Below are positions 3,946 to 24,839 of a stretch of 64,000 nt of DNA, in pieces; position 1 is the first letter of the stretch; each line of letters opens with the position of its first letter. Below the pieces are notes generated by a model. It saw only the letters and a program-made list of their open reading frames with translations, did not search any database and was not told where the DNA came from. The position numbers were made by a program, and so were the translations under genes. Origin of the DNA: an uncultured archaeon (GTDB lineage: Archaea; Asgardarchaeota; Heimdallarchaeia; Heimdallarchaeales; Heimdallarchaeaceae); assembly GCA_964590855.1 (NCBI GenBank), contig CAZPXJ010000002.1, positions 21,814 through 85,813 of the forward strand, written 5' to 3'.

Positions 3946-5814
3946 CTACACCTCAATATCACTAAGGATGACATCGAATCTTCTTTTTCTACTCTTAACA
4001 TATCTTCTGATTCTTTTAGCAATGAAATAAAAGATCACAATTACAATACCAACTGCTATTGCAATCCCTGTGTAAATAACATTCCAATTTCTGCTAACAA
4101 TAATAAAAATCTGATATGTATTGTCAAACTCATATAGTTCATAGATTTGACTTCCAACATCAACAGAGATTGAAACATTCCATACTCGTAATCCAAACCC
4201 TTGAAATTCATCATATTGAAGATCTAACGTTTCATCAACATCTAAACTTTCAATTTCTCTAGTCATCTTTATGGTGTCATTAAATACTAATGAAACCCAG
4301 AATGGGGCTGAGAGAATAGAACCATTGTTCTGTATTGTAAAATCGATTGTTAATCTTCGAAATTCTGTAGGATTCTCTGGATTTACTATTACTTCTTTTA
4401 CATTGAGATTGGGAAAACGATACCATGAGTATATATCTGTTGCATTTTCATCATATTCGGTAAAGTAGGAAATTATGTTCATAGGGTATAGAACATTCAC
4501 GGAACTATTCCAACTTCTTTCTTCTGGAGCAGAAGTTAGCATTTTGTTAAAGGAATGTCCCGTTCCTATTATTCCTATGGTGTAATTAGAATCATAAGTC
4601 AAAATACTCCCTACTCCCCTTGTAATCATTCCATCTATATCGTAAATTAAAGTTCCATTTTCTTCTAAATACATAGGAATTATTTCTGTCCCATCTTGTA
4701 ATACTATTACTCCCATCTTTTGATTAGAGTAAGACAAAGCAGAATAGAAGATTTCTCCATATTTCATGTTATCTGGTGAGATATATTGAATTCCTGCTTT
4801 ATGTACAGTACCATTGATAGTATAATTGTAAAGTATAGAGAGAGAGAAATTAGAATTGATAAACGAGATATTATAGAAATACTCACCCGCAGGTATAAGG
4901 TCACTTGTAAGTGTAGTTGTTCCATTATTAGGTAAAATAACAAATCCTGAGGTGTCTAGATCAGTTTGATACACAACAATACCTCCTTCTCCCAGAGTAG
5001 AAATAGTAACTTCTGCATCACCATCAATAAGTGGTATTAAATCTGTATCTGGAGGGGGATAAGTATAATATTGGGTTCCCCAAAGAAATTGAGGGATAGC
5101 AGTAAATGCAAAAGCACCTTCGTCAGGTGTAAGCGAATAAAAAACCACGCCAATAGGACCTGATCCTTTAATGACGGTTCCTTCCATTACATCAACATCT
5201 ATTGTTTGTCCAACAAAATCAATGTTTTCAGTTTGATCCACTTCACCTGGATTACTGATTGTCACTTCAGAGTTGTTAAATCCTGCAATAATTTTTGCTT
5301 TCATATTATCATATGGACTCTGATATTCATCTCCCCACATAGACATTACCAAAGGAGAATAAGAAAATGTGTCATCTGAGATAGTGCTCTCCGATAGATG
5401 ATAAACATTGATTTGTAAGGGAACGAATGTTTGAATTAAGGAACCATTTACCATATTTATTTCAGTTGCTGAATTGAGAATGAGTGTCTCATTTGAATTA
5501 AGATAGGTTGTATTTTCGTATGCTACTGGTTCAAAGCCAAATATTATTGGAACTTCATCATAGAGCGTGGTAATTTCGACGATTGTTGGTCCAAATGGAC
5601 CCGCCTCAAAGAGCAATGGGAGTCTATAGTTGAGATATAATCCTCCTGCAGAACTCCCACCTCCTGTATCCTCACCTCCACCAGGAGGAGGAATTTCACC
5701 AGAACTAGGGCTCCCTGCAGATGTATAACTAACTGTATAAGAAGAAGTAACAGAAAAGTGACTAATTACTAGTATGAAGAAAATGAGTATTGTAGCAATA
5801 GTTCTCTTCTTCAT
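3946..5814 (-). CDS. Secreted, C-terminally membrane-anchored surface protein (N-glycosylation-sequon rich; possible CARDB-like domain near the C-terminus)
   Basis: It has an N-terminal signal/anchor (TIATILIFFILVISHF), a Gly/Pro/Ser linker, many N-x-S/T sequons, and a C-terminal TM (IYTGIAIAVGIVIVIFYFIA) followed by a basic tail KRIRRYVKSRKRR. Its ATG overlaps the DUF58 stop (ATGA). Confidence 0.6.
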   Translation of the reverse strand: MKKRTIATILIFFILVISHFSVTSSYTVSYTSAGSPSSGEIPPPGGGEDTGGGSSAGGLYLNYRLPLLFEAGPFGPTIVEITTLYDEVPIIFGFEPVAYENTTYLNSNETLILNSATEINMVNGSLIQTFVPLQINVYHLSESTISDDTFSYSPLVMSMWGDEYQSPYDNMKAKIIAGFNNSEVTISNPGEVDQTENIDFVGQTIDVDVMEGTVIKGSGPIGVVFYSLTPDEGAFAFTAIPQFLWGTQYYTYPPPDTDLIPLIDGDAEVTISTLGEGGIVVYQTDLDTSGFVILPNNGTTTLTSDLIPAGEYFYNISFINSNFSLSILYNYTINGTVHKAGIQYISPDNMKYGEIFYSALSYSNQKMGVIVLQDGTEIIPMYLEENGTLIYDIDGMITRGVGSILTYDSNYTIGIIGTGHSFNKMLTSAPEERSWNSSVNVLYPMNIISYFTEYDENATDIYSWYRFPNLNVKEVIVNPENPTEFRRLTIDFTIQNNGSILSAPFWVSLVFNDTIKMTREIESLDVDETLDLQYDEFQGFGLRVWNVSISVDVGSQIYELYEFDNTYQIFIIVSRNWNVIYTGIAIAVGIVIVIFYFIAKRIRRYVKSRKRRFDVILSDIEV

Positions 5815-6752
5815 CTTACAAGACCTCTTCTTTTTGATCCGAAATAAGTCAGTAATAGTTTTTCCATTAGAACTGTTGTGGGGGCATCTATTACATCAAT
5901 ATTCAAACCAACTACTTTTCGTTTAAATTCATTAATCTCTTTTATCTGCAATCCGAGCTCATACATGAACATTCCTCGTTCAAGAAGATTACTGAAGTTA
6001 ACAGCTAAAACATCCCCTGTTTCTGGATCTTGGAATTTTACTTGTCTTGGATTTTTTGGGAACAAAAATTCTTCTGGATCATGTATGTGAATTAATTTAA
6101 CATCATGATGTTTGATATTGGCAACTTTGAATCCGTCAAGTGCTTTCTCAAGATTACCATGAAGGTCAGTCAGTATGATGATAATTGCTCTTCGTTTTTG
6201 TGCTAATGCAATCTCTCTGATACTCTCACCAATATCTGTGTTCCCTAGTGGGGCAACTTTTAACATTTCATTAAATATAGTATACAGATGAGTTTTTCCA
6301 CCTCTGGGGGGTATATATTTATGGATTTTATCAGAGAATGATACCCAACCAAAATTATCTCTGTTATTCATCACAGTATATGCTAAAGTAGCAATAGCTT
6401 CTACTGCCATTTTAATTCTGGGTGTTGGATCACCTAAAAGCATCGAATAACTTGTATCAAGCATCAGAATAACATTGGTGTTCCTTTCTTGTTCGTAATC
6501 TCTAACAATTAGTTTGTGAGGAACTCTTGAAGATGCATTCCAATCAATAAACCTCAAGTCATCTCCCTCAATATACTCTCTTAAATCAGCATATTCTGTC
6601 CCTGGTCCTCGAAAGATAGATCGTCTATGACCTTGTAAAAAGCTTGTAGACCTCTCTTTCGCAAGAATCTCTAATTTCTTAAGTTTCTTAAGAGGTATTT
6701 TTCCGCTTTCTTTTTTCTCTTTTACTGATTTGGGCTCTTCGACTAGAGTCAT
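5811..6752 (-). CDS. DUF58 family protein (vWA-like fold, intact MIDAS D-x-S-x-S)
   Basis: It carries the signature REYIEGDDLRFIDWNASSR and then VILMLDTSYSM (DxSxS). DUF58 is the classical genomic partner of MoxR ATPases. Confidence 0.85.
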   Translation of the reverse strand: MTLVEEPKSVKEKKESGKIPLKKLKKLEILAKERSTSFLQGHRRSIFRGPGTEYADLREYIEGDDLRFIDWNASSRVPHKLIVRDYEQERNTNVILMLDTSYSMLLGDPTPRIKMAVEAIATLAYTVMNNRDNFGWVSFSDKIHKYIPPRGGKTHLYTIFNEMLKVAPLGNTDIGESIREIALAQKRRAIIIILTDLHGNLEKALDGFKVANIKHHDVKLIHIHDPEEFLFPKNPRQVKFQDPETGDVLAVNFSNLLERGMFMYELGLQIKEINEFKRKVVGLNIDVIDAPTTVLMEKLLLTYFGSKRRGLVR

Positions 6753-16527: not shown

Positions 16528-17445
16528 TCATGAGATTATCTCTTTAAAATCACTTATCTCTTCAAAGGTAATTGCATTTACAGGACATACATTGATACAA
16601 ATTCCACATGCTTTGCAATAGGTTTTGATGACCTTAACTATATCACCTTCTTTATGTATGGTTCCTTCTGGACAGTGGAAGAAACACTGTAAGCACTGAA
16701 TACATTTTTCTTGGTCGATATATGCTTTTTCGCTACTCCAAGCACCAGTTATTCTTGAAACAGCGGCACCAGGACCTATCTTTTGACCTGACTCTAGTTC
16801 CATCTTTGGGATAATCGTTCCAATAGGTAATTCATCAACAGTTGGTAACCAGGTACGAATTTTTGTGTTATTCCCCCCACCTTGAGTCTCTCCAAAAACT
16901 GTTTCTTCATATGCTATTCTTGCTGCTTCAATATTCATTTTGGCCATACGGTTACCCAAACGTGTTCCAAAAACAGACATTATTCCTCTTTCTAAGTTCT
17001 CGAAAGTGATGAATTCTGAACTCCTAACTAAAGCTCCTAACATTGCACTATTAACAACTGGTTGAACTAAGAATTCTTTTGCAATCTTCGTTGCATCAAC
17101 AGCTGCTACTTGTGTTGGTCTTGAAAGCTTTATTTGTTCAGGTTTCTTTGGTGAGTTCAATACTCCTATTCCATCAGGTTTTAAGCCTTGGACTACGTTC
17201 ACTAGCTCTAAAAGAGAATCTTCCAAAACCACAATGATATCGGGTTCATAAATCTGTGTTCTCTTATAGATTTTCTTATCATCAATTCGTGCAAACGCTA
17301 AAACTAAAGCACCTCTTCTTTCAGCACCAAACGAGGGGATAGCAATTGCGTGCTTACCCGAATAAAAAACAGCTTTTGTTAATGCTCTTGATGCTAGAAC
17401 AGAACCTGTCCCACCTCTACCATGGAATCGGATTTCTAACATCAT
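16528..17445 (-). CDS. 2-oxoacid:ferredoxin oxidoreductase gamma subunit fused to a delta (2x[4Fe-4S] ferredoxin) domain
   Basis: The N-terminus (IRFHGRGGTGSVLASRALTKAV...IPSFGAERRGA) matches the POR/VOR gamma signature. The C-terminus has CIQCLQCFFHCP and CKACGICINVCP cluster motifs. Confidence 0.85.
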   Translation of the reverse strand: MMLEIRFHGRGGTGSVLASRALTKAVFYSGKHAIAIPSFGAERRGALVLAFARIDDKKIYKRTQIYEPDIIVVLEDSLLELVNVVQGLKPDGIGVLNSPKKPEQIKLSRPTQVAAVDATKIAKEFLVQPVVNSAMLGALVRSSEFITFENLERGIMSVFGTRLGNRMAKMNIEAARIAYEETVFGETQGGGNNTKIRTWLPTVDELPIGTIIPKMELESGQKIGPGAAVSRITGAWSSEKAYIDQEKCIQCLQCFFHCPEGTIHKEGDIVKVIKTYCKACGICINVCPVNAITFEEISDFKEIIS

Positions 17446-18928: not shown

Positions 18929-19579
18929 CTATTCAGCTGGTTTTTGAGCAACAGTCCAGACATATCCCCTTCTATCTTTGGGGCGAATCAATCTTACTTC
19001 CTTTGCAATAGAGAATATTTTCCATCCTTTCAAAGCAGTTTTCAATTCAGTCATTGTAATGAATTTTAGAGGAGGTTCTGTTTTGAAATGAGGTTTTACG
19101 TTCCCTCCATACAGAAGAAATCCTCCTGGTTTAACAGCTTTTAGTAGCTCTAACAATTTTGGCAAGGCTTTATCATACAAATATTGCAAACACTGAATAG
19201 CAGAAATTACATCATAACTCTCGGGTTTGAGTTCAAAAGTGCCCATATCTGCTAACAAGATATTCATTTTTTCAGTTACACCCAAAGCTTCAGCACGTTT
19301 TTTCGTGATTTCTATAGCCGATGGAAGGATGTCGATCGCATCAACTTCATATCCAAGTTGAGCTAAAAAGCAAGCATACCTGCCATCACCAGTACCAAGA
19401 TCTAATGCCTTTTTTGCTTCATGTTCTTTCCCCTGAGTGAACATAGAATATTCCTGTAAAGCATAATGGACATGATGAGGTGGTAGTTCTCCTAAATCAC
19501 CTTCCGATTGTTTCTTGTAAACATTATCCCAGCCTTCCATGTATTTATCGGGAACTGGAGTGGTGAATTTCTTAATCAT
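18929..19579 (-). CDS. Class I SAM-dependent methyltransferase
   Basis: Motif I is ALDLGTGDGRYACFLAQLGYEVDAIDI, with post-I and motif II spacing typical of Methyltransf_25/TehB-like enzymes. Confidence 0.8.
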   Translation of the reverse strand: MIKKFTTPVPDKYMEGWDNVYKKQSEGDLGELPPHHVHYALQEYSMFTQGKEHEAKKALDLGTGDGRYACFLAQLGYEVDAIDILPSAIEITKKRAEALGVTEKMNILLADMGTFELKPESYDVISAIQCLQYLYDKALPKLLELLKAVKPGGFLLYGGNVKPHFKTEPPLKFITMTELKTALKGWKIFSIAKEVRLIRPKDRRGYVWTVAQKPAE

Positions 19580-19738: not shown

Positions 19739-21409
19739 ATGAACTTGAAGAAAATTCTAATTATTAGTAGTTTACTTTTATTGGTATTAAATCTGTCACC
19801 AGATGTATCCGCAAATAAGGAAAATCCTCAACCTGAATCAAGTCTTATAGTAAATCAAGTTGATTTTTGGTTCAATGTAACAACTATGTATACGGAAATT
19901 TCTATTAGGAGTGATGGATCCATAGACATCTATTATTATATTCAGTTATTTAATCATAATTCACTCAGTGAGCCTATTTGGGTTTTTGATATTGGTTTTC
20001 CAAATGTGTACTATGATTTGAAATCTGTTAGAGCTAAAATCAATGGAACAGAAATTACTAACATTAACAAAAGTCCATATGTGGATATTGGGGTGGAGAT
20101 TCTATTAGGTGCCTATGCTGTACCGGAAGGATACACTGGAATTCTGGAAGTATGGTGTCATAACCCTATAATGGTATTTGATGATTCAGAAGCAGGACAA
20201 GCTTCTACAGTATTTTTGCAAACTTGGTTTGATTATGGTTTTGTATATAGTCAAACCTTTAAGACGGTTCGATTTTACTTCCCTGATGGTTTAGACGATA
20301 TTAATTCAGTAGAACCTCGCGTTGCAGACTCAAGTGATTTTTCTGTATTCGTTCATCCTACAAATTCGTCCTTATCATATGTTGAATTTTCAGAAATAGG
20401 TTATCCTTCTTCAGGATATTGGGTAGGTGTTGCTTTTCCTGAGGATTATGCTCGTATCTATAGTTCATTTTGGAGATTGAAAGTATTTGGAACTATGAAA
20501 CAAAATCCAGTGATGACGATTATTATTTCATTATTTATCGGCGGAATTATTCTTTACATCATCATGAAACGAAGGAATAGAAGGAAATATCTCCCCCCAT
20601 CAATCAGTTCTTTAGGCGGTGGGGTAAGAGAAAAGTTGGAACCTTCCGAAGTAGCAATATTGCTTGAAAGACCATTGACACAAGTTGCTTCATTGATGTT
20701 ATTCGAGATGATGGAAAAAGGTTACATTTCAGTAAGACAAACTGAACCTGCTTTGAGGATGCAAGTTGATATTGATTCTGATAAAACTACCTCCTTACAG
20801 AAATTCGAGAAGTCAATTATTCGAGGAATTGAAAAACGTAATAAAGAAGATATCAAATGGCAAAAAGGTGCTTCTCATGGTGCTATTCCCCCAGAACCAG
20901 TTCATCAAGATGAGATAAAAATGGCTATTGTTCATCATATTAAATCTGTTACTAAGAAAATGAAAGGATTTTCTGCTAGAAAAACTCGTGATTTCTATGA
21001 AGCAATAATTGAAAGAGCATGGCAAGAGATGGCTAAATCGGAACCAGAATTAAGAAATGCATTCTTGTGGATAATGGTTGATGAAAAATATGAACAGCAA
21101 TTGGAAAAACATGGATCAGATTATTATTACCCCAGATGGTACGTAAGCAGTTATTATATCTATCTGGGTAGAACTCACTCCTCAAGTAGTTACTATTCCC
21201 GTATTCCTAGCGGTTCAGTATCGCATACTAGACCTGTAAATATGTTCAATTCTCGTTTGATTAATAAACCTCAATCTCTCCACAATTCAATAAGAAATAT
21301 CACCAGACCCCCATCAACATCTAGTGGAGGATCCCGTGGTGGAGGTGGTGGTGGTGGATGTGCTTGTGCATGTGCTTGTGCATGTGCTTGTGCAGGAGGC
21401 GGAAGATGA
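19739..21409 (+). CDS. DUF2207-like type I membrane protein ending in a Gly7-(Cys-Ala)6-Gly3-Arg tail
   Basis: It has a signal peptide (KILIISSLLLLVLNLSPDVSA), a ~230-aa ecto-domain, one TM (VMTIIISLFIGGIILYIIM KRRNRRK), and a cytoplasmic region with EPSEVAILLERPLTQVASLMLFEMMEKGYISV (DUF2207-type). A Tyr/Ser-rich stretch follows, and the protein ends SRGGGGGGG-CACACACACACA-GGGR. Confidence 0.6.
   Translation: MNLKKILIISSLLLLVLNLSPDVSANKENPQPESSLIVNQVDFWFNVTTMYTEISIRSDGSIDIYYYIQLFNHNSLSEPIWVFDIGFPNVYYDLKSVRAKINGTEITNINKSPYVDIGVEILLGAYAVPEGYTGILEVWCHNPIMVFDDSEAGQASTVFLQTWFDYGFVYSQTFKTVRFYFPDGLDDINSVEPRVADSSDFSVFVHPTNSSLSYVEFSEIGYPSSGYWVGVAFPEDYARIYSSFWRLKVFGTMKQNPVMTIIISLFIGGIILYIIMKRRNRRKYLPPSISSLGGGVREKLEPSEVAILLERPLTQVASLMLFEMMEKGYISVRQTEPALRMQVDIDSDKTTSLQKFEKSIIRGIEKRNKEDIKWQKGASHGAIPPEPVHQDEIKMAIVHHIKSVTKKMKGFSARKTRDFYEAIIERAWQEMAKSEPELRNAFLWIMVDEKYEQQLEKHGSDYYYPRWYVSSYYIYLGRTHSSSSYYSRIPSGSVSHTRPVNMFNSRLINKPQSLHNSIRNITRPPSTSSGGSRGGGGGGGCACACACACACAGGGR
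21359..21394 (+). repeat. Perfect 12-nt tandem repeat (tgtgcttgtgca) x3 encoding (Cys-Ala)6
   Basis: Read directly from the sequence. The same 36 nt is also open in the frame of the downstream gene, where it reads MCLC x3. Confidence 0.95.
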
Positions 21410-22749
21410 TGGATATGAATGATATATTAAGCAAATTAGGGATAAATCGAAATTCTAAGATGTTTCATCAAAGAAACTTGGATACAACTACAAGAATGCA
21501 TCTAAGAAAAGAGAAGAAAGGAAAGAGTCTTCTTTTAGTTAATGCTACAATGATTTTTCATCTAAATAAGACTGCAACAGATTTTGCTTCTAGAATAATT
21601 GATGGAAAAGATGATGCGGAAATAATACGGGAGATGAAAAGAAAATATCGCGTTTCAGAAAAGCAATTAGAATCAGATTTGAAAGAACTCAAAAGCTCTA
21701 TCTCTAGATTAATGGAGGAACCTGATATTGACCCAGTTCAGCATTTATCTCAAGATGTCAGCCCTCTTCTAGAAGCTCATTTTTCTGCTCCTTTAAGAAT
21801 GGATTTAGCTCTTACGTACAGATGTAATAACAAATGTTCAAAGTGTTATGTAGAAAATTATAGAGATGTTAAAGAATTATCAACAATTGAGTGGAAACAA
21901 GTGTTAGACAATCTTTGGGCTCAAGGTATCCCCCATGTTACTTTCACGGGTGGAGAACCAACAATGCGACCTGATCTTCATGAATTAGTTGAATATGCTG
22001 AGGATCTCGGGATTATAACAGGTCTCATTTCCAATGGTAGGAAATTGAAAAATAAAAAATTAGTTACCAACCTCATTGAAGCAGGAATTGATCATTTTCA
22101 AATAACCTTAGAAAGTCATGATGCTTCTATTCATGACTCTTTGTGTGGAGTGCGAGGTGCATGGAAAGAAACTGTGGAGGCTATAAAGAATATTGTTCCG
22201 ACCCCGGTCTATATTATGACTAATACAACTCTGACTCCTTACAATGTTAAAGAGATAGAGAAAACAGTTGAGTTTCTACATTCTATTGGGATTGAGAAGT
22301 TTGCAGCAAATAGCATAATCAGATCTGGAGGTGGAAAACAAGAAGATATGGCACTAACCATTGAAGAACTAGATGAAGCATTAACAAAGATTATGAAGAA
22401 AGCAGATGAATTAGGTATGGGTTTCATTTGGTATAGTCCAACAAGATATTGTGACTTCAATCCAATTGAGAAAGGATTGGGAATGAAACAATGCTCAGCT
22501 GCACACATCGCTATGGCAATAGAACCTGATGGTGAGGTTATACCCTGTCAAAGTTACTTTGAACCTTTGGGGAATATACTTACAACTAGATGGAGAAAAA
22601 TTTGGAACCATAAAACTGCAAAGAATTTAAGAAACATGAAATATCTTCAAGAAGAATGTTTAGACTGTCCAGAAAGAGAATTGTGTGGTGGTGGGTGTCC
22701 TCTAAACTATGCAGCTCCTATGAATGTTTGTAAAACCCCATACTCCTAA
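21406..22749 (+). CDS. Radical SAM enzyme with a C-terminal SPASM domain and an N-terminal PqqD-like (RRE) domain: putative peptide/protein maturase
   Basis: The CX3CX2C motif is LTYRCNNKCSKCY, with the GGEP motif FTGGEPTM. The SPASM cysteines are CSAAH...IPCQ...CLDCPERELCGGGCP. The N-terminal ~100 aa (LLLVNATMIFHLNKTATDFASRIIDGKDDAEIIREMKRKYRVSEKQLESDLKELKSSISRL) fits the PqqD/RRE pattern. The ATG at 21406 overlaps the upstream TGA (ATGA) and is preceded by AGGAGG at 21393-21398. The track start at 21358 lies inside the repeat and was rejected. Confidence 0.85.
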   Translation: MMDMNDILSKLGINRNSKMFHQRNLDTTTRMHLRKEKKGKSLLLVNATMIFHLNKTATDFASRIIDGKDDAEIIREMKRKYRVSEKQLESDLKELKSSISRLMEEPDIDPVQHLSQDVSPLLEAHFSAPLRMDLALTYRCNNKCSKCYVENYRDVKELSTIEWKQVLDNLWAQGIPHVTFTGGEPTMRPDLHELVEYAEDLGIITGLISNGRKLKNKKLVTNLIEAGIDHFQITLESHDASIHDSLCGVRGAWKETVEAIKNIVPTPVYIMTNTTLTPYNVKEIEKTVEFLHSIGIEKFAANSIIRSGGGKQEDMALTIEELDEALTKIMKKADELGMGFIWYSPTRYCDFNPIEKGLGMKQCSAAHIAMAIEPDGEVIPCQSYFEPLGNILTTRWRKIWNHKTAKNLRNMKYLQEECLDCPERELCGGGCPLNYAAPMNVCKTPYS

Positions 22750-22757
22750 TTTTTCTG

Positions 22758-23522
22758 GTGCTTGAAATGTCAGAAAAATCAAGAGATGTTAATTGGGGCC
22801 CTCATATTCATGAACAATTCAAACGACAAGCAAAATGGACAGAAGATTTTAGAAAGCAGATCTATCAGCAAGTGAATTTAGAAAAAGCTAAAAGAGTTCT
22901 AGATGTTGGTTGTGGGACGGGAGTAATAGCTGAAGAACTCAAAAAGAATTCTTCTGCAAAAGTAACTGCCATAGATATGGATAAAGCTATGATAAAAATC
23001 GCGGAGGAGAAAGTAAGAGGAGTACAATTTTTAGTTGAAAACGCTGAGATGATGTCAATGAAAGATGATTACTTTGATGTCGTTTTCTGCCAATATCTAT
23101 TCTTGTGGTTATCAAACCCTAAGAGAGCTTTGGATGAAATGGTTAGAGTGTGTCGAAAAGGAGGACATGTTGTTGCTCTAGCTGAACCAGATTATGGGGG
23201 GTGGATAGAATATCCCGAGTTGAATCTAGGTAAAAACCACATTAAATACCTTGAAAGTGAAGGTGCTGATCCATACATGGGGCGAAAAATCCTAAGTCTA
23301 TTTGAGAAAGCAGGATTACACACATATCTGGTGACAATTGCTCAAAGCTGGAATCAAGAAAATCTTAGAAACAATATTGAAGAAGAATGGCGAAGGGTAT
23401 TAGAATCTGATTTAATAAATGAAGTAGAATATACTGAAATTATTGAAAAAGAGTTAGAACTCATCAACAAAAATCAACGAATGATTTTTATGCCTGTTTT
23501 TTGTGTAATTGGACGAAAATAA
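22758..23522 (+). CDS. Class I SAM-dependent methyltransferase (UbiE/Methyltransf_11-like)
   Basis: It has VLDVGCGTGVIAEELKK...VTAIDMD and FDVVFCQYLFLWL. The start is GTG at 22758 or ATG at 22767. It lies 8-17 nt after the radical SAM gene. Confidence 0.8.
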   Translation: MLEMSEKSRDVNWGPHIHEQFKRQAKWTEDFRKQIYQQVNLEKAKRVLDVGCGTGVIAEELKKNSSAKVTAIDMDKAMIKIAEEKVRGVQFLVENAEMMSMKDDYFDVVFCQYLFLWLSNPKRALDEMVRVCRKGGHVVALAEPDYGGWIEYPELNLGKNHIKYLESEGADPYMGRKILSLFEKAGLHTYLVTIAQSWNQENLRNNIEEEWRRVLESDLINEVEYTEIIEKELELINKNQRMIFMPVFCVIGRK

Positions 23523-23542: not shown

Positions 23543-23668
23543 TGGTCGGGCCTCCGTGATTTGAACACGGGACCTGGCGGTAAATGCGACTGACGACTTG
23601 TTCACTGTTTCCTCACAAGCGCGATTTCTCTACAGCCGCCCGCTCTATGCCAACTGAGCTAAGGCCCG
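23543..23668 (-). tRNA. tRNA-Tyr (anticodon GUA) with a ~48-nt intron at the canonical 37/38 position and encoded CCA
   Basis: Manual fold of the reverse complement: acceptor CGGGCCT/AGGCCCG, D arm GCTC-AGTTGGCATA-GAGC, anticodon stem GGCGG/CCGCC, loop CU-GUA-G|intron|A, variable AGGTC, T arm CCGTG-TTCAAAT-CACGG, discriminator A, then CCA. It is the only clearly GC-rich non-coding patch in the window. Confidence 0.9.
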
Positions 23669-23855
23669 TACTTTTGAAACTTCAACCTAAATTGATGCTT
23701 CTACACTGTTTGCAATTTACTTTCTTCTTAAATTTTTCTTTTCTATTCTATATTTCCATCTTTTCTGATTTTTTCGATTTTATGAAAGCCGTTTATGAAG
23801 TACCACATTTAAGTAAACTTAAAAACATGTACAAGTATATTTTTACTCGATAATT

Positions 23856-24359
23856 ATGAGTGAATCTAACATGCATTTATATAAACTGCAAGAGCATCAA
23901 TATGATGTTGAAGCTGATCTCTATAAAAAATTAGGTGAACTTCAAGATTTTAGAAAGAAGATCGCAGAAGAAAAAAAGGGAAAAGCTAAAGATAAGAGAG
24001 AAAAAGAAGAGCATCTAATTAAGAAAGCAGAATTTGAAGAAAGAGGTTTACCCGATAAAGCTCTTAAGAGTGAAGTTAAATCTATGAATAAAGATACTCA
24101 GATAGCTAAAAAAGATGCTAAAATCAAAGAAATGGAGCGCCGAATTAGGAATATTGAGGAAGAGATTGAGAAACTTGAAGCTGAGCTAAGTGAAGCAGAA
24201 GCTGATGTTAAGGCTCATAAAACTGACGCACCTGTAGATGAAACTTCTGAATGTCAAGATTCTTCTGATGATTCCCTTGAACCATCTGTACTTGAAGATT
24301 CTGAAGATGAAGACGAGGATCAATCAGATCCAGTTGATGATTTAAGTTATCAAGAATAG
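23856..24359 (+). CDS. Hypothetical coiled-coil protein with an acidic C-terminal tail
   Basis: The central region is K/E-rich with heptad-like spacing (IRNIEEEIEKLEAELSEAEADV). The tail is D/E/S-rich. No enzymatic motif was found. Confidence 0.4.
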   Translation: MSESNMHLYKLQEHQYDVEADLYKKLGELQDFRKKIAEEKKGKAKDKREKEEHLIKKAEFEERGLPDKALKSEVKSMNKDTQIAKKDAKIKEMERRIRNIEEEIEKLEAELSEAEADVKAHKTDAPVDETSECQDSSDDSLEPSVLEDSEDEDEDQSDPVDDLSYQE

Positions 24360-24455: not shown

Positions 24456-24839
24456 ATGGAATTATATGGAACAGCAGATTGGAAAACAGAAAAACATGTA
24501 CCAGTAATTGAAGCTCCAGATGTAGTTGGATTGGGCGAGAAGACTCCTATCACAGTAAGTGTTGGAAAAGAAATTGCTCATCCAAATAAGACTGAGCACC
24601 ACATTTCTTGGATTAAACTAATGTTTTGGCCAGCAGATGAAAAATATCCTTATCAAGTAGGATTAGTAAACTTCGATGCACATGGTGCATCAATTAAAGG
24701 ACCAGATACAAGTGGAATTTATTCTGAACCTTATGCAGTTTTTCATCTAAAAACTGATAAACCAGGTAAATTGATAGCTACTTCATACTGTAATATTCAT
24801 GGTTTCTGGAAATTTGAAAAAGAAATCAAAGTAGAGTAA
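24456..24839 (+). CDS. sor: Superoxide reductase (1Fe-SOR, neelaredoxin type)
   Basis: It has EKHVPVIE, HPNKTEHHI and SYCNIHGFW, which provide the His4-Cys iron ligands. It is collinear with Pyrococcus-type SOR and 127 aa long. Confidence 0.92.
   Translation: MELYGTADWKTEKHVPVIEAPDVVGLGEKTPITVSVGKEIAHPNKTEHHISWIKLMFWPADEKYPYQVGLVNFDAHGASIKGPDTSGIYSEPYAVFHLKTDKPGKLIATSYCNIHGFWKFEKEIKVE

Follow-up and report, generated by a model that had tools for sequence, protein, structure and literature searches.

The 64,000-nucleotide window analysed here, part of contig CAZPXJ010000002.1 of an uncultured heimdallarchaeial archaeon, encodes a membrane protein that ends in a cysteine-alanine repeat, a radical S-adenosylmethionine (SAM)/SPASM enzyme bearing a RiPP recognition element (RRE; RiPP, a peptide made on the ribosome and modified after translation) and a methyltransferase. 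The three genes are tightly packed on the forward strand (19739-23522), and we consider it likely that they constitute a single operon devoted to RiPP-like maturation in a protein-tethered form. On genomic and structural grounds, the cysteine-rich tail is very probably the substrate of the adjacent enzyme. The initial annotation of the window, made from its sequence alone, had already proposed the tail of a full-length membrane protein as the enzyme's target; this proposal is supported by conserved linkage of the two genes in both directions and by the identity of the enzyme's nearest solved relatives, which are RiPP maturases. The gene pair is kept in both directions across at least 12 phyla of Bacteria and Archaea.

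Gene 1 (19739..21409, +) was delimited from its open reading frame (ORF) and translation and encodes the 556-aa membrane protein, the proposed substrate. Gene 2 (21406..22749, +), recognized by Pfam, homologues, AlphaFold2 (AF2) modelling and Foldseek, encodes the 447-aa RRE-radical SAM-SPASM enzyme, and gene 3 (22758..23522, +), recognized by Pfam Methyltransf_11, a class I SAM-dependent methyltransferase with whose last nucleotide, 23522, the operon ends. The C-terminal GGGR of the membrane protein (21395-21406) and its TGA stop (21407-21409) together span 21395..21409 (+), and the ATG of the radical SAM gene (21406-21408) overlaps this stop as ATGA. A Shine-Dalgarno-like hexamer, AGGAGG (21394..21399, +), lies inside the Ala-Gly-Gly codons 6 nt upstream of that ATG, and the same GGA-GGN-GGA codon choice is seen again in archaeal coupled loci. 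The start at 21406 is backed by homologues of 446-447 aa (100% coverage, 82-89% identity). The methyltransferase begins at GTG 22758 or ATG 22767, that is 8 or 17 nt past the stop of the radical SAM gene (22747-22749). The tail, the ATGA coupling, the AGGAGG, the CX3CX2C motif and the SPASM cysteines had all been read in the initial annotation and were confirmed in the sequence, as was a methyltransferase 8-17 nt downstream. The Asgard version of the cassette, including that of the window, is its minimal three-gene form.

A longer frame for the radical SAM gene, from ATG 21358 (MCLCMCLC...), is the +1 frame of the tail; it was rejected because the orthologues begin at or after the tail stop, with a spacing that varies from 3 to 588 nt. 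Upstream of the accepted start, the tail repeat at 21358-21405 translates in the frame of the enzyme (+1) as MCLCMCLCMCLCRRRK. Other loci show comparable Cys-Leu strings, which are a by-product of the tail-coding repeat.

The membrane protein ends ...SRGGGGGGG-CACACACACACA-GGGR. In the AF2 model a short helix (aa 511-522) ends at T522 and is followed by a disordered tail. The segment that overlaps the end of this helix, IRNITRPPS (aa 517-525; 21287..21313, +), has a counterpart in bacteria, 'ITNKTNPxP'; T522 is invariant and P524 nearly invariant in the family alignment, and the motif is a candidate leader-like recognition segment for the RRE. Then come a linker of seven glycines (aa 534-540; 21338..21358, +) and the (Cys-Ala)6 core (aa 541-552; 21359..21394, +), the proposed modification site, whose cysteines are invariant family-wide. 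Every homologue with a tail of subtype A or B has a Gly/Ser-rich linker, and GGGR is invariant in both subtypes. The tail is read as a substrate because the pre-tail motif, the linker, the invariant cysteine core and GGGR would together reproduce the leader-linker-core logic of RiPPs on a membrane protein.

The tail is conserved far beyond the window. A word-seeded search returned 29 homologues, which are 25-51% identical and belong to Heimdallarchaeia and Chloroflexota; all those of full length end (CA)n[G(CA)n]GGGR, and the tail is unchanged even among homologues that are only 25-30% identical. At E<=1e-3, a profile search over 1.84 billion representatives placed 1311 clusters in the family, of which 486 match at E<=1e-30. 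A CxC tail with at least five cysteines is present in 131 of the 148 top representatives; two have a shorter tail and the rest are mostly fragments. Three types of tail were distinguished: (CA)4-6GGGR in Heimdall archaea and Methanomassiliicoccales; CACACACAG-CACACAGGGR, with 3+3, 5+3, 2+4 and 3+4 variants, in Chloroflexota, Hod- and Lokiarchaea, Planctomycetota and others; and an archaeal form with ten cysteines, C[VA]CACAxCACACACVSCACACA[GHS]GG[AV][RGH]. Throughout, the cysteine positions are essentially invariant and the residue between them is usually alanine, otherwise V, S, T, D, N, H or Y.

The window (CA)6 is encoded as (TGT GCT TGT GCA)x3. Across 144 parsed tails, by comparison, both cysteine codons are in use (TGC 584, TGT 399), as are all four alanine codons (GCC 533, GCG 191, GCT 169, GCA 90). 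This mixture of synonymous codons under an invariant amino acid pattern indicates selection on the peptide.

Two kinds of irregular tail locus were encountered. On a Bathyarchaeota chromosome (L004, CP070659, 5900-6000), the membrane-protein ORF halts at ...RCVCA and the remaining tail (CACACACVSCACACAGGGAR, then a stop) lies in another frame, ending 2 nt before the radical SAM gene; the break reflects a frameshift within the repeat or else a mistake in the assembly. Short tail ORFs in three further loci (L052, L057, L094) were considered as small precursors and rejected, since the body of the membrane protein is present in another frame. These other-frame bodies occur mostly in assemblies labelled MFD and point to indel errors.

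To measure linkage from the side of the tail, the DNA pattern of (CA)3GGGR-stop was used to scan one genome per species, which yielded at least 120 loci. The locus counts for tail and enzyme given here and below are samples taken among the matches listed, in locus windows of 8-9 kb, such that some absences are uninformative. All 120 of the 120 matches are ORF C-termini. Similarity to the window membrane protein is significant in 107 of them and the other 13 have fewer than ~165 upstream codons; among the matches listed, no (CA)n-GGGR tail was seen on any other kind of protein. Among 97 tail loci with at least 1.5 kb downstream, a radical SAM gene follows immediately in 75 and lies elsewhere in the 8-kb locus in five; 12 are uninformative and five have none. 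Tail is thus linked to enzyme in 80 of 85 informative loci (94%). The 12 uninformative loci belong to a subtype with the radical SAM gene upstream and hold too little upstream sequence. This arrangement, with the radical SAM genes upstream and the methyltransferase directly downstream of the tail gene, is that of Planctomycetota/Hydrogenedentes and is also represented among the five loci with the enzyme elsewhere.

Linkage from the side of the enzyme was measured in metagenomes, scanned with an alignment of radical SAM orthologues (at least 80 loci, 42-75% identity). The initial annotation had suggested a gene-neighbourhood comparison of this kind, and the orthologues do adjoin Cys-repeat tails: among the matches listed, a CxC tail lies directly upstream in 71 of 79 informative loci (90%), counting tails one gene further upstream when the match is the second of two tandem paralogues. 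One locus is uninformative; eight informative loci have no tail upstream, several of which keep the methyltransferase. Orthologues from Lokiarchaea, Bathyarchaeota and hot-spring archaea, inspected singly, show the same arrangement of tail and enzyme. One orphan tail locus (L036) comes from the same metagenome-assembled genome as a complete cassette (L088), which suggests that the enzyme may act in trans.

Other departures from the standard arrangement were also recorded. L100, L112 and the pair L036 with L088 have two tail-bearing paralogues, in tandem or separate, of which only one stands beside the radical SAM and methyltransferase genes. Conversely, four loci (L151, L160, L173, L154) carry radical SAM-methyltransferase pairs with no gene for a tailed membrane protein beside them; the radical SAM gene of L151 is closely preceded by a hydrophobic ORF of 75 aa.

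The cassette occurs in archaea (among them Heimdall-, Hod- and Promethearchaeota, Bathyarchaeia, Methanomassiliicoccales/Thermoplasmatota). Its bacterial hosts include Chloroflexota (mostly Anaerolineae), Planctomycetota, Acidobacteriota/Aminicenantes, Fermentibacterota and Hydrogenedentes, and in addition Zixibacteria, Coatesbacteria, Myxococcota and Bacillota. In the sampled loci, the enzyme is 42-50% identical between Archaea and Bacteria. Among the carriers are a cultured bacterium, Ornatilinea apprima P3M-1, and Ca. Heimdallarchaeum aukensis, whose genome is closed.

The 447-aa enzyme has the three domains expected of a peptide maturase. Pfam recognizes Radical_SAM (5e-25), SPASM (1.3e-10, aa 363-422) and PqqD (3.2e-6). 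The PqqD match (aa 48-95; 27.8 bits, above the cut-off of 23.4) places an RRE in the N-terminal region, as the initial annotation had suggested, and the AF2 model (pTM, the predicted template-modelling (TM) score, 0.81) shows an RRE-like fold preceding the barrel. The PqqD-like domain covers aa ~19-103 (21460..21714, +), with strands at 19-24, 29-35, 41-45 and 49-53 followed by helices at 55-65, 70-81 and 85-103. Its predicted local distance difference test (pLDDT) values average about 75-94 in ten-residue blocks over aa 21-100, and R30, H32, L33, R34, L43, N46, A47 and N54 are invariant among orthologues. Membership of the radical SAM superfamily is established by Pfam, by AF2/Foldseek matches to the core and by the motif CNNKCSKC (C140-X3-C144-X2-C147; 21823..21846, +), of the type that binds the SAM-cleaving [4Fe-4S] cluster, which is invariant in 21 orthologues. 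The SPASM assignment is drawn from the Pfam match and from eight cysteines (C349, C363, C381, C418-X2-C421-X5-C427-X3-C431, C442; 22450..22731, +); the seven from C349 to C431 are invariant and C442 is present in at least 90% of orthologues.

Structural and sequence comparisons rank the same relatives first. The best Foldseek match of the model is SkfB (E 6e-17, TM-score 0.72 on target), followed by SuiB with or without peptide (E ~1e-14) and then PqqE; the SuiB alignment runs over 440-457 columns and hence includes the RRE, and the alignment to the RRE-bearing SkfB is likewise full-length. Later matches, to anSME, MoaA and viperin, are at the level of the generic core. Searches of PDB sequences gave SkfB (1e-24), PqqE (6e-21), SuiB (9e-15) and CteB (1e-6). 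SkfB, SuiB and PqqE are thus the nearest solved enzymes, and a closest grouping with AhbD, anSME or a tungsten-cofactor maturase, named beforehand as an outcome that would count against a peptide substrate, was not seen. Of the curated profiles, the Radical_SAM, SPASM and PqqD models matched as anticipated; all NCBIfam radical SAM models stayed below cut-off, and DUF2207, anticipated for the membrane protein, was unmatched. The best NCBIfam scores are far below cut-off (NirJ2 148/500, PqqE 140/381, AhbD 120/500 bits), and for the five cassette proteins of Ornatilinea every NCBIfam model is likewise below cut-off. The enzyme is not assigned to the PqqE, NirJ or AhbD families, and the genes on either side of the cassette include none for pqq, haem or d1.

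The product of the third gene contains LDVGCGTG, and its Pfam matches are to Methyltransf_11/25/31 with E of 1e-20 to 1e-25, Methyltransf_11 giving 1.6e-25, which identifies a class I methyltransferase with a Rossmann-like, GxGxG-containing SAM-binding fold. Orthologues recur in the cassettes of many phyla. Among the matches listed, one is present in 36 of 51 tail loci with at least 4.5 kb downstream, and the gene stays beside the radical SAM gene even where the membrane gene is absent. Clustering the ORFs of at least 120 genome loci gave four recurrent families: the membrane protein (at least 110 loci), the radical SAM enzyme (at least 99, often as two tandem copies), a Zn-ribbon protein (at least 67) and the methyltransferase (at least 59). 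The Zn-ribbon protein has ~120 aa, two transmembrane helices and a CxxC...CxxC pattern, and ends EEPKW. The second tandem radical SAM copy of Anaerolineae and Planctomycetota is a pseudo-enzyme, since it has no CX3CX2C but keeps the N-terminal RRE-like segment; in Anaerolineae it also lacks all SPASM cysteines. Neither a Zn-ribbon protein nor a homologue of the second radical SAM paralogue was found by tblastn in the window or in Asgard loci.

Examples of the pseudo-enzyme are found in Ornatilinea apprima (L065, oriented coordinates 4723-5883) and in loci L047 and L068. A 948-aa protein of the representative library (P0252) has such a pseudo-radical SAM/RRE paralogue (aa ~1-340) fused to a (CA)n-tailed membrane protein; the fusion could be a Rosetta-stone link or the result of a lost stop codon.

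The architecture of the membrane protein suggests how its tail could meet the enzyme. An N-terminus that resembles a signal peptide (aa 1-25, modelled by AF2 with a signal-like helix over residues 3-18), a confidently modelled beta-sandwich ecto-domain (aa ~45-234) and one transmembrane helix (aa 257-281, from sequence and AF2) followed by KRRNRRK bear out the topology first read from the sequence. A cytoplasmic winged helix-turn-helix-like unit and a helical bundle (aa ~300-470) complete the model, which has a pLDDT of 74. Given the signal peptide, the single transmembrane helix and the positive-inside rule, the tail is predicted to be cytoplasmic, where it would be within reach of the oxygen-sensitive radical SAM enzyme.

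One element of the initial annotation did not hold. The cytoplasmic region had been called DUF2207-like; the window protein has no Pfam match, and none to DUF2207 (PF09972) even at E<=10. Six other family members have no DUF2207 match at E<=0.01. Only TIGR04222 gives a match, below its cut-off (18.7 bits against 43, E 1e-3), at aa 262-342 just after the transmembrane helix; it spans no more than profile positions 2-72 of 229 and does not place the protein in that family. A Chloroflexi homologue (P0025) has no TIGR04222 match. From this partial similarity, the membrane protein is possibly a distant TIGR04222 relative. NCBI gives the proteins of these loci no names beyond 'PqqD family peptide modification chaperone', 'radical SAM protein' and 'hypothetical protein'.

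The AF2 model (aa 45-470) has its best PDB matches in chain E of human OST-A/OST-B complexes, which we take, from length only, to be ribophorin I, and in yeast Ost1. The E-values are 2e-8 to 2e-5 and the alignments extend to as many as 453 columns, but the TM-score is only ~0.27. The OST match and the window protein share a luminal or ecto beta-sandwich, one transmembrane helix and a cytosolic helical domain, and the next structural matches are N-domains of M1 aminopeptidases. Searching PDB sequences with the membrane protein and with its family profile gave no meaningful match, and for lack of such sequence-level support the modelled resemblance to ribophorin I/Ost1 is treated as a lead only; for an Asgard archaeon it is intriguing, although bacteria have the family too. 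Two larger members of ~770-840 aa (P0150, P0153) have a duplicated beta-sandwich ecto-domain.

These observations can be combined into a model of how the cassette may operate. The membrane protein would insert N-out/C-in, leaving its C-terminal part of ~270 aa and the disordered tail in the cytoplasm. The RRE of the co-translated enzyme would dock either on the conserved stretch that precedes the linker or directly on the invariant tail, and the enzyme would then act repeatedly along the Cys-X-Cys-X repeat. The products could be sactionine-like thioethers from cysteine sulfur to the alpha-carbon of a neighbouring alanine or glycine, possibly arranged as a hairpin ladder. The class I methyltransferase would add one or more methyl groups, for which the thiol, a carboxylate or the C-terminal arginine are candidate acceptors. 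In Chloroflexota and Planctomycetota, the inactive paralogue that keeps its RRE and the small Zn-ribbon protein with two transmembrane helices may assist.

Thioether formation is the best-supported guess at the chemistry, by analogy, and we put it forward tentatively. It is favoured because SkfB, the closest solved enzyme, makes an S-C-alpha bond, because cysteines spaced in alternation would suit a beta-hairpin with these residues on the same face, and because there is a precedent in StsB, which links each cysteine of StsA to a glycine alpha-carbon to give three hairpin sactionines on a CxCxC...GxGxG core (PMC10288494). The G7-(CA)6-GGG of the window shares the alternating-cysteine and glycine-rich logic of that core. 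Oxidation at the cysteine C-beta (anSME-like), other cysteine-derived heterocycles and epimerisation are alternatives. The modified tail could provide a conserved membrane protein with a rigid, redox-inert or metal-binding cytoplasmic appendage. In its fullest form, our proposal is of an ancient, hitherto unrecognised maturation system of Asgard and other anaerobic archaea and bacteria, in which a radical SAM/SPASM enzyme guided by its RRE, with a pseudo-enzyme paralogue as helper in bacteria, would convert the CxC repeat at the cytoplasmic end of a membrane protein into a poly-thioether (or other Cys-derived), methylated and protein-bound structure: a new kind of protein-derived prosthetic group or a rigid metal- or redox-active appendage, not a secreted product. 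We regard this complete scenario as possible, with less than even confidence.

Several points weigh against modification of the tail. The unmodified CxC repeat could already bind metals, in analogy to metallothionein-like motifs. NirJ2, PqqE and AhbD, two of which are tetrapyrrole enzymes, score alike and all below cut-off, such that sequence similarity alone fixes no peptide chemistry. The eight SPASM cysteines may suffice to ligate both auxiliary clusters fully, a state less typical of enzymes such as CteB, in which an open cluster site takes up the thiolate of the substrate. We know of no sactipeptide pathway that requires a methyltransferase. Finally, the partner is missing nearby at ~10% of enzyme loci and ~5% of tail loci among the matches listed.

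Some of these points would also suit a system of docking without modification, in which the CxC tail, as a binder of metal or Fe-S or purely as a tether, recruits the radical SAM enzyme and the methyltransferase to the membrane, the RRE is no more than an anchor, and the enzymes act on another substrate such as a lipid, cofactor or small molecule. CxC repeats resemble metal sites of the metallothionein or CopY type described in the literature, the radical SAM core has generic similarity to the lipid enzyme GDGT-MAS, and the top NCBIfam scores include NirJ2 and AhbD; the membrane protein is, moreover, a standing member of the cassette and a second, small one occurs in bacteria. We nevertheless judge this explanation unlikely. 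Characterised RRE-bearing radical SAM/SPASM enzymes (SkfB, SuiB and the PqqD-PqqE logic) modify the peptide they bind and are also the closest structures, the cassette has no conserved genes for a lipid or cofactor pathway, and invariant cysteines alternating with small residues behind a flexible glycine linker are typical of a RiPP leader-linker-core.

Still less probable is that the membrane protein serves as a giant leader or scaffold whose modified tail is cleaved to free a small Cys-derived peptide or cofactor, following the logic of PQQ and mycofactocin. PqqE and MftC are among the better profile matches, and processing might take place at the invariant GGGR and at the conserved motif ahead of the tail. 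Against this, no protease or exporter is conserved in the cassette, and the stoichiometric use of a conserved multi-domain membrane protein of ~550 aa would be wasteful. Invariant or nearly invariant columns also run throughout the rest of the membrane protein, which suggests that the mature protein is the functional entity. Lastly, a coincidence or artefact, with (CA)6 as a microsatellite or low-complexity read-through beside an unrelated cofactor gene of NirJ, AhbD or PqqE type, would draw on the regular (TGTGCT TGTGCA)3 of the window, the four to six CA units of Heimdall relatives and the frameshifted Bathyarchaeota tail, but has a negligible probability and is counted as refuted by the loci that match the tail pattern, by linkage that is reciprocal (90% and 94% of informative loci among the matches listed), by tail residues kept across phyla with different codons, by the RRE of the adjacent enzyme and by the lack of haem, PQQ or d1 genes nearby.

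With the tail preferred as a modified substrate, the cassette can be compared with known maturation systems. Judged by its domains, it would work like an RRE-dependent radical SAM/SPASM RiPP maturase, yet it fits no curated NCBIfam family. As is usual for such maturases, a probable cognate precursor is adjacent; it is atypical in being a 556-aa membrane protein. SkfB (PDB 6EFN), AlbA, CteB and StsB likewise combine RRE, radical SAM and SPASM/twitch domains, and SkfB is the best match in both sequence and structure. The enzyme nevertheless falls below the cut-offs for sactisynthases (SkfB TIGR04403 106/300, AlbA NF012164 84/850, StsB NF045574 82/625 bits). In contrast to sactipeptides, the substrate here would be the C-terminus of a large membrane protein rather than a secreted peptide of 40-60 aa, six to ten cysteines alternate with alanine, and there is a dedicated methyltransferase and no protease or exporter.

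Ranthipeptide (SCIFF, PapB) and ACGX-repeat (TIGR04340) systems also place a radical SAM/SPASM enzyme beside a Cys-rich repeat target. Their targets are short stand-alone peptides with CX2-3 D/E or A-C-G-X spacing; the window tail differs from the ACGX type in its C-A-C-A spacing and in its position on a large protein, and the enzyme scores below cut-off for both (PapB NF047865 76/340, ACGX radical SAM 73/400 bits). PqqE/PqqD and MftC/MftB share the PqqD-type RRE logic, and PqqE is the second-best match among NCBIfam profiles and PDB sequences. The enzyme is distinguished from PqqE and MftC by its scores (140/381 and 100/265 bits), by a tail without the Glu/Tyr or Val-Tyr motif and by the absence of pqq and mft genes.

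SPASM enzymes that act on full-length proteins provide another comparison. anSME converts a sulfatase Cys or Ser to formylglycine, and QhpD introduces thioethers into the QhpC subunit. The likeness to the two lies in action on cysteine of a full-length protein rather than of a released peptide, as proposed for the window tail, and for anSME also in a moderate structural match (TM-score ~0.6 on target). anSME has no RRE and needs a C/S-x-P/A-x-R motif, whereas the last cysteine of the window tail reads C-A-G-G-G-R and the window enzyme bears an RRE, which sets it outside that family. Models for anSME and QhpD are absent among the 25 best-scoring NCBIfam families for the enzyme, none of which reaches cut-off, and no sulfatase or amine dehydrogenase genes occur in the window neighbourhood.

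The closest conceptual parallel comes from another enzyme class. TIGR04222 membrane proteins with Cys/Gly/Ser-rich C-tails have been proposed as substrates of MNIO (DUF692) enzymes, with tails that are predicted to be periplasmic and that occur mainly in Actinomycetota (PMC12452194). The concept of a tethered, Cys-rich tail on a membrane protein is therefore already published for MNIO enzymes (PMC12452194), and the two systems resemble each other in that the low-complexity, Cys-bearing C-tail of a membrane protein would be targeted by an adjacent RiPP-type enzyme. The present cassette differs in using a radical SAM/SPASM enzyme and a methyltransferase, in its strict CxC repeat ending GGGR, in the predicted cytoplasmic position of the tail and in its taxa, which are anaerobic Chloroflexota, Asgard archaea and others. 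No DUF692 gene is present among the window neighbours or the recurrent cassette families, and the cassette is thus not placed with the MNIO-TIGR04222 systems. Literature searches on the tail, on CxCxC with radical SAM and on PqqD in Asgard archaea found no description of the cassette; what they brought up was limited to the work on MNIO/TIGR04222 and on StsA/StsB.

RRE-bearing radical SAM/SPASM enzymes have been studied almost only as makers of small secreted peptides, and genome-mining tools seek short precursor ORFs, such that a system of this kind would be missed. If confirmed, the cassette would be a defined and testable example of protein-tethered RiPP chemistry, would probably reveal that a CxC repeat undergoes thioether or methylation chemistry of a new sort, and would give a first biochemical handle on a conserved membrane protein family of ~1,300 representative clusters. 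The system is also tractable: Ornatilinea apprima P3M-1 is a cultured host, and the archaeal version needs only three genes for heterologous work. The parallel with MNIO/TIGR04222 suggests that Cys-rich tails of membrane proteins may be a general, convergently targeted modification site.

Next to the cassette in the window, an intron-containing tRNA gene (23546-23668, -) is convergent to the methyltransferase gene (Rfam 48.9 bits, E 2e-9); it carries an insertion of ~51 nt at the anticodon loop, and ARAGORN found no tRNA in the downstream spacer. An 89-aa ORF at 23584..23853 is considered spurious because it overlaps this tRNA gene. On the other side, a divergent gene (18929-19579, -) encodes a TehB-like methyltransferase that is not conserved with the cassette, and further upstream lies a gene for a 4Fe-4S-motif protein (16528-17445, -). 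Downstream, a coiled-coil gene (23856-24359) and a desulfoferrodoxin-family gene (24456-24839, +) are syntenic only in a close Heimdall relative (L034).

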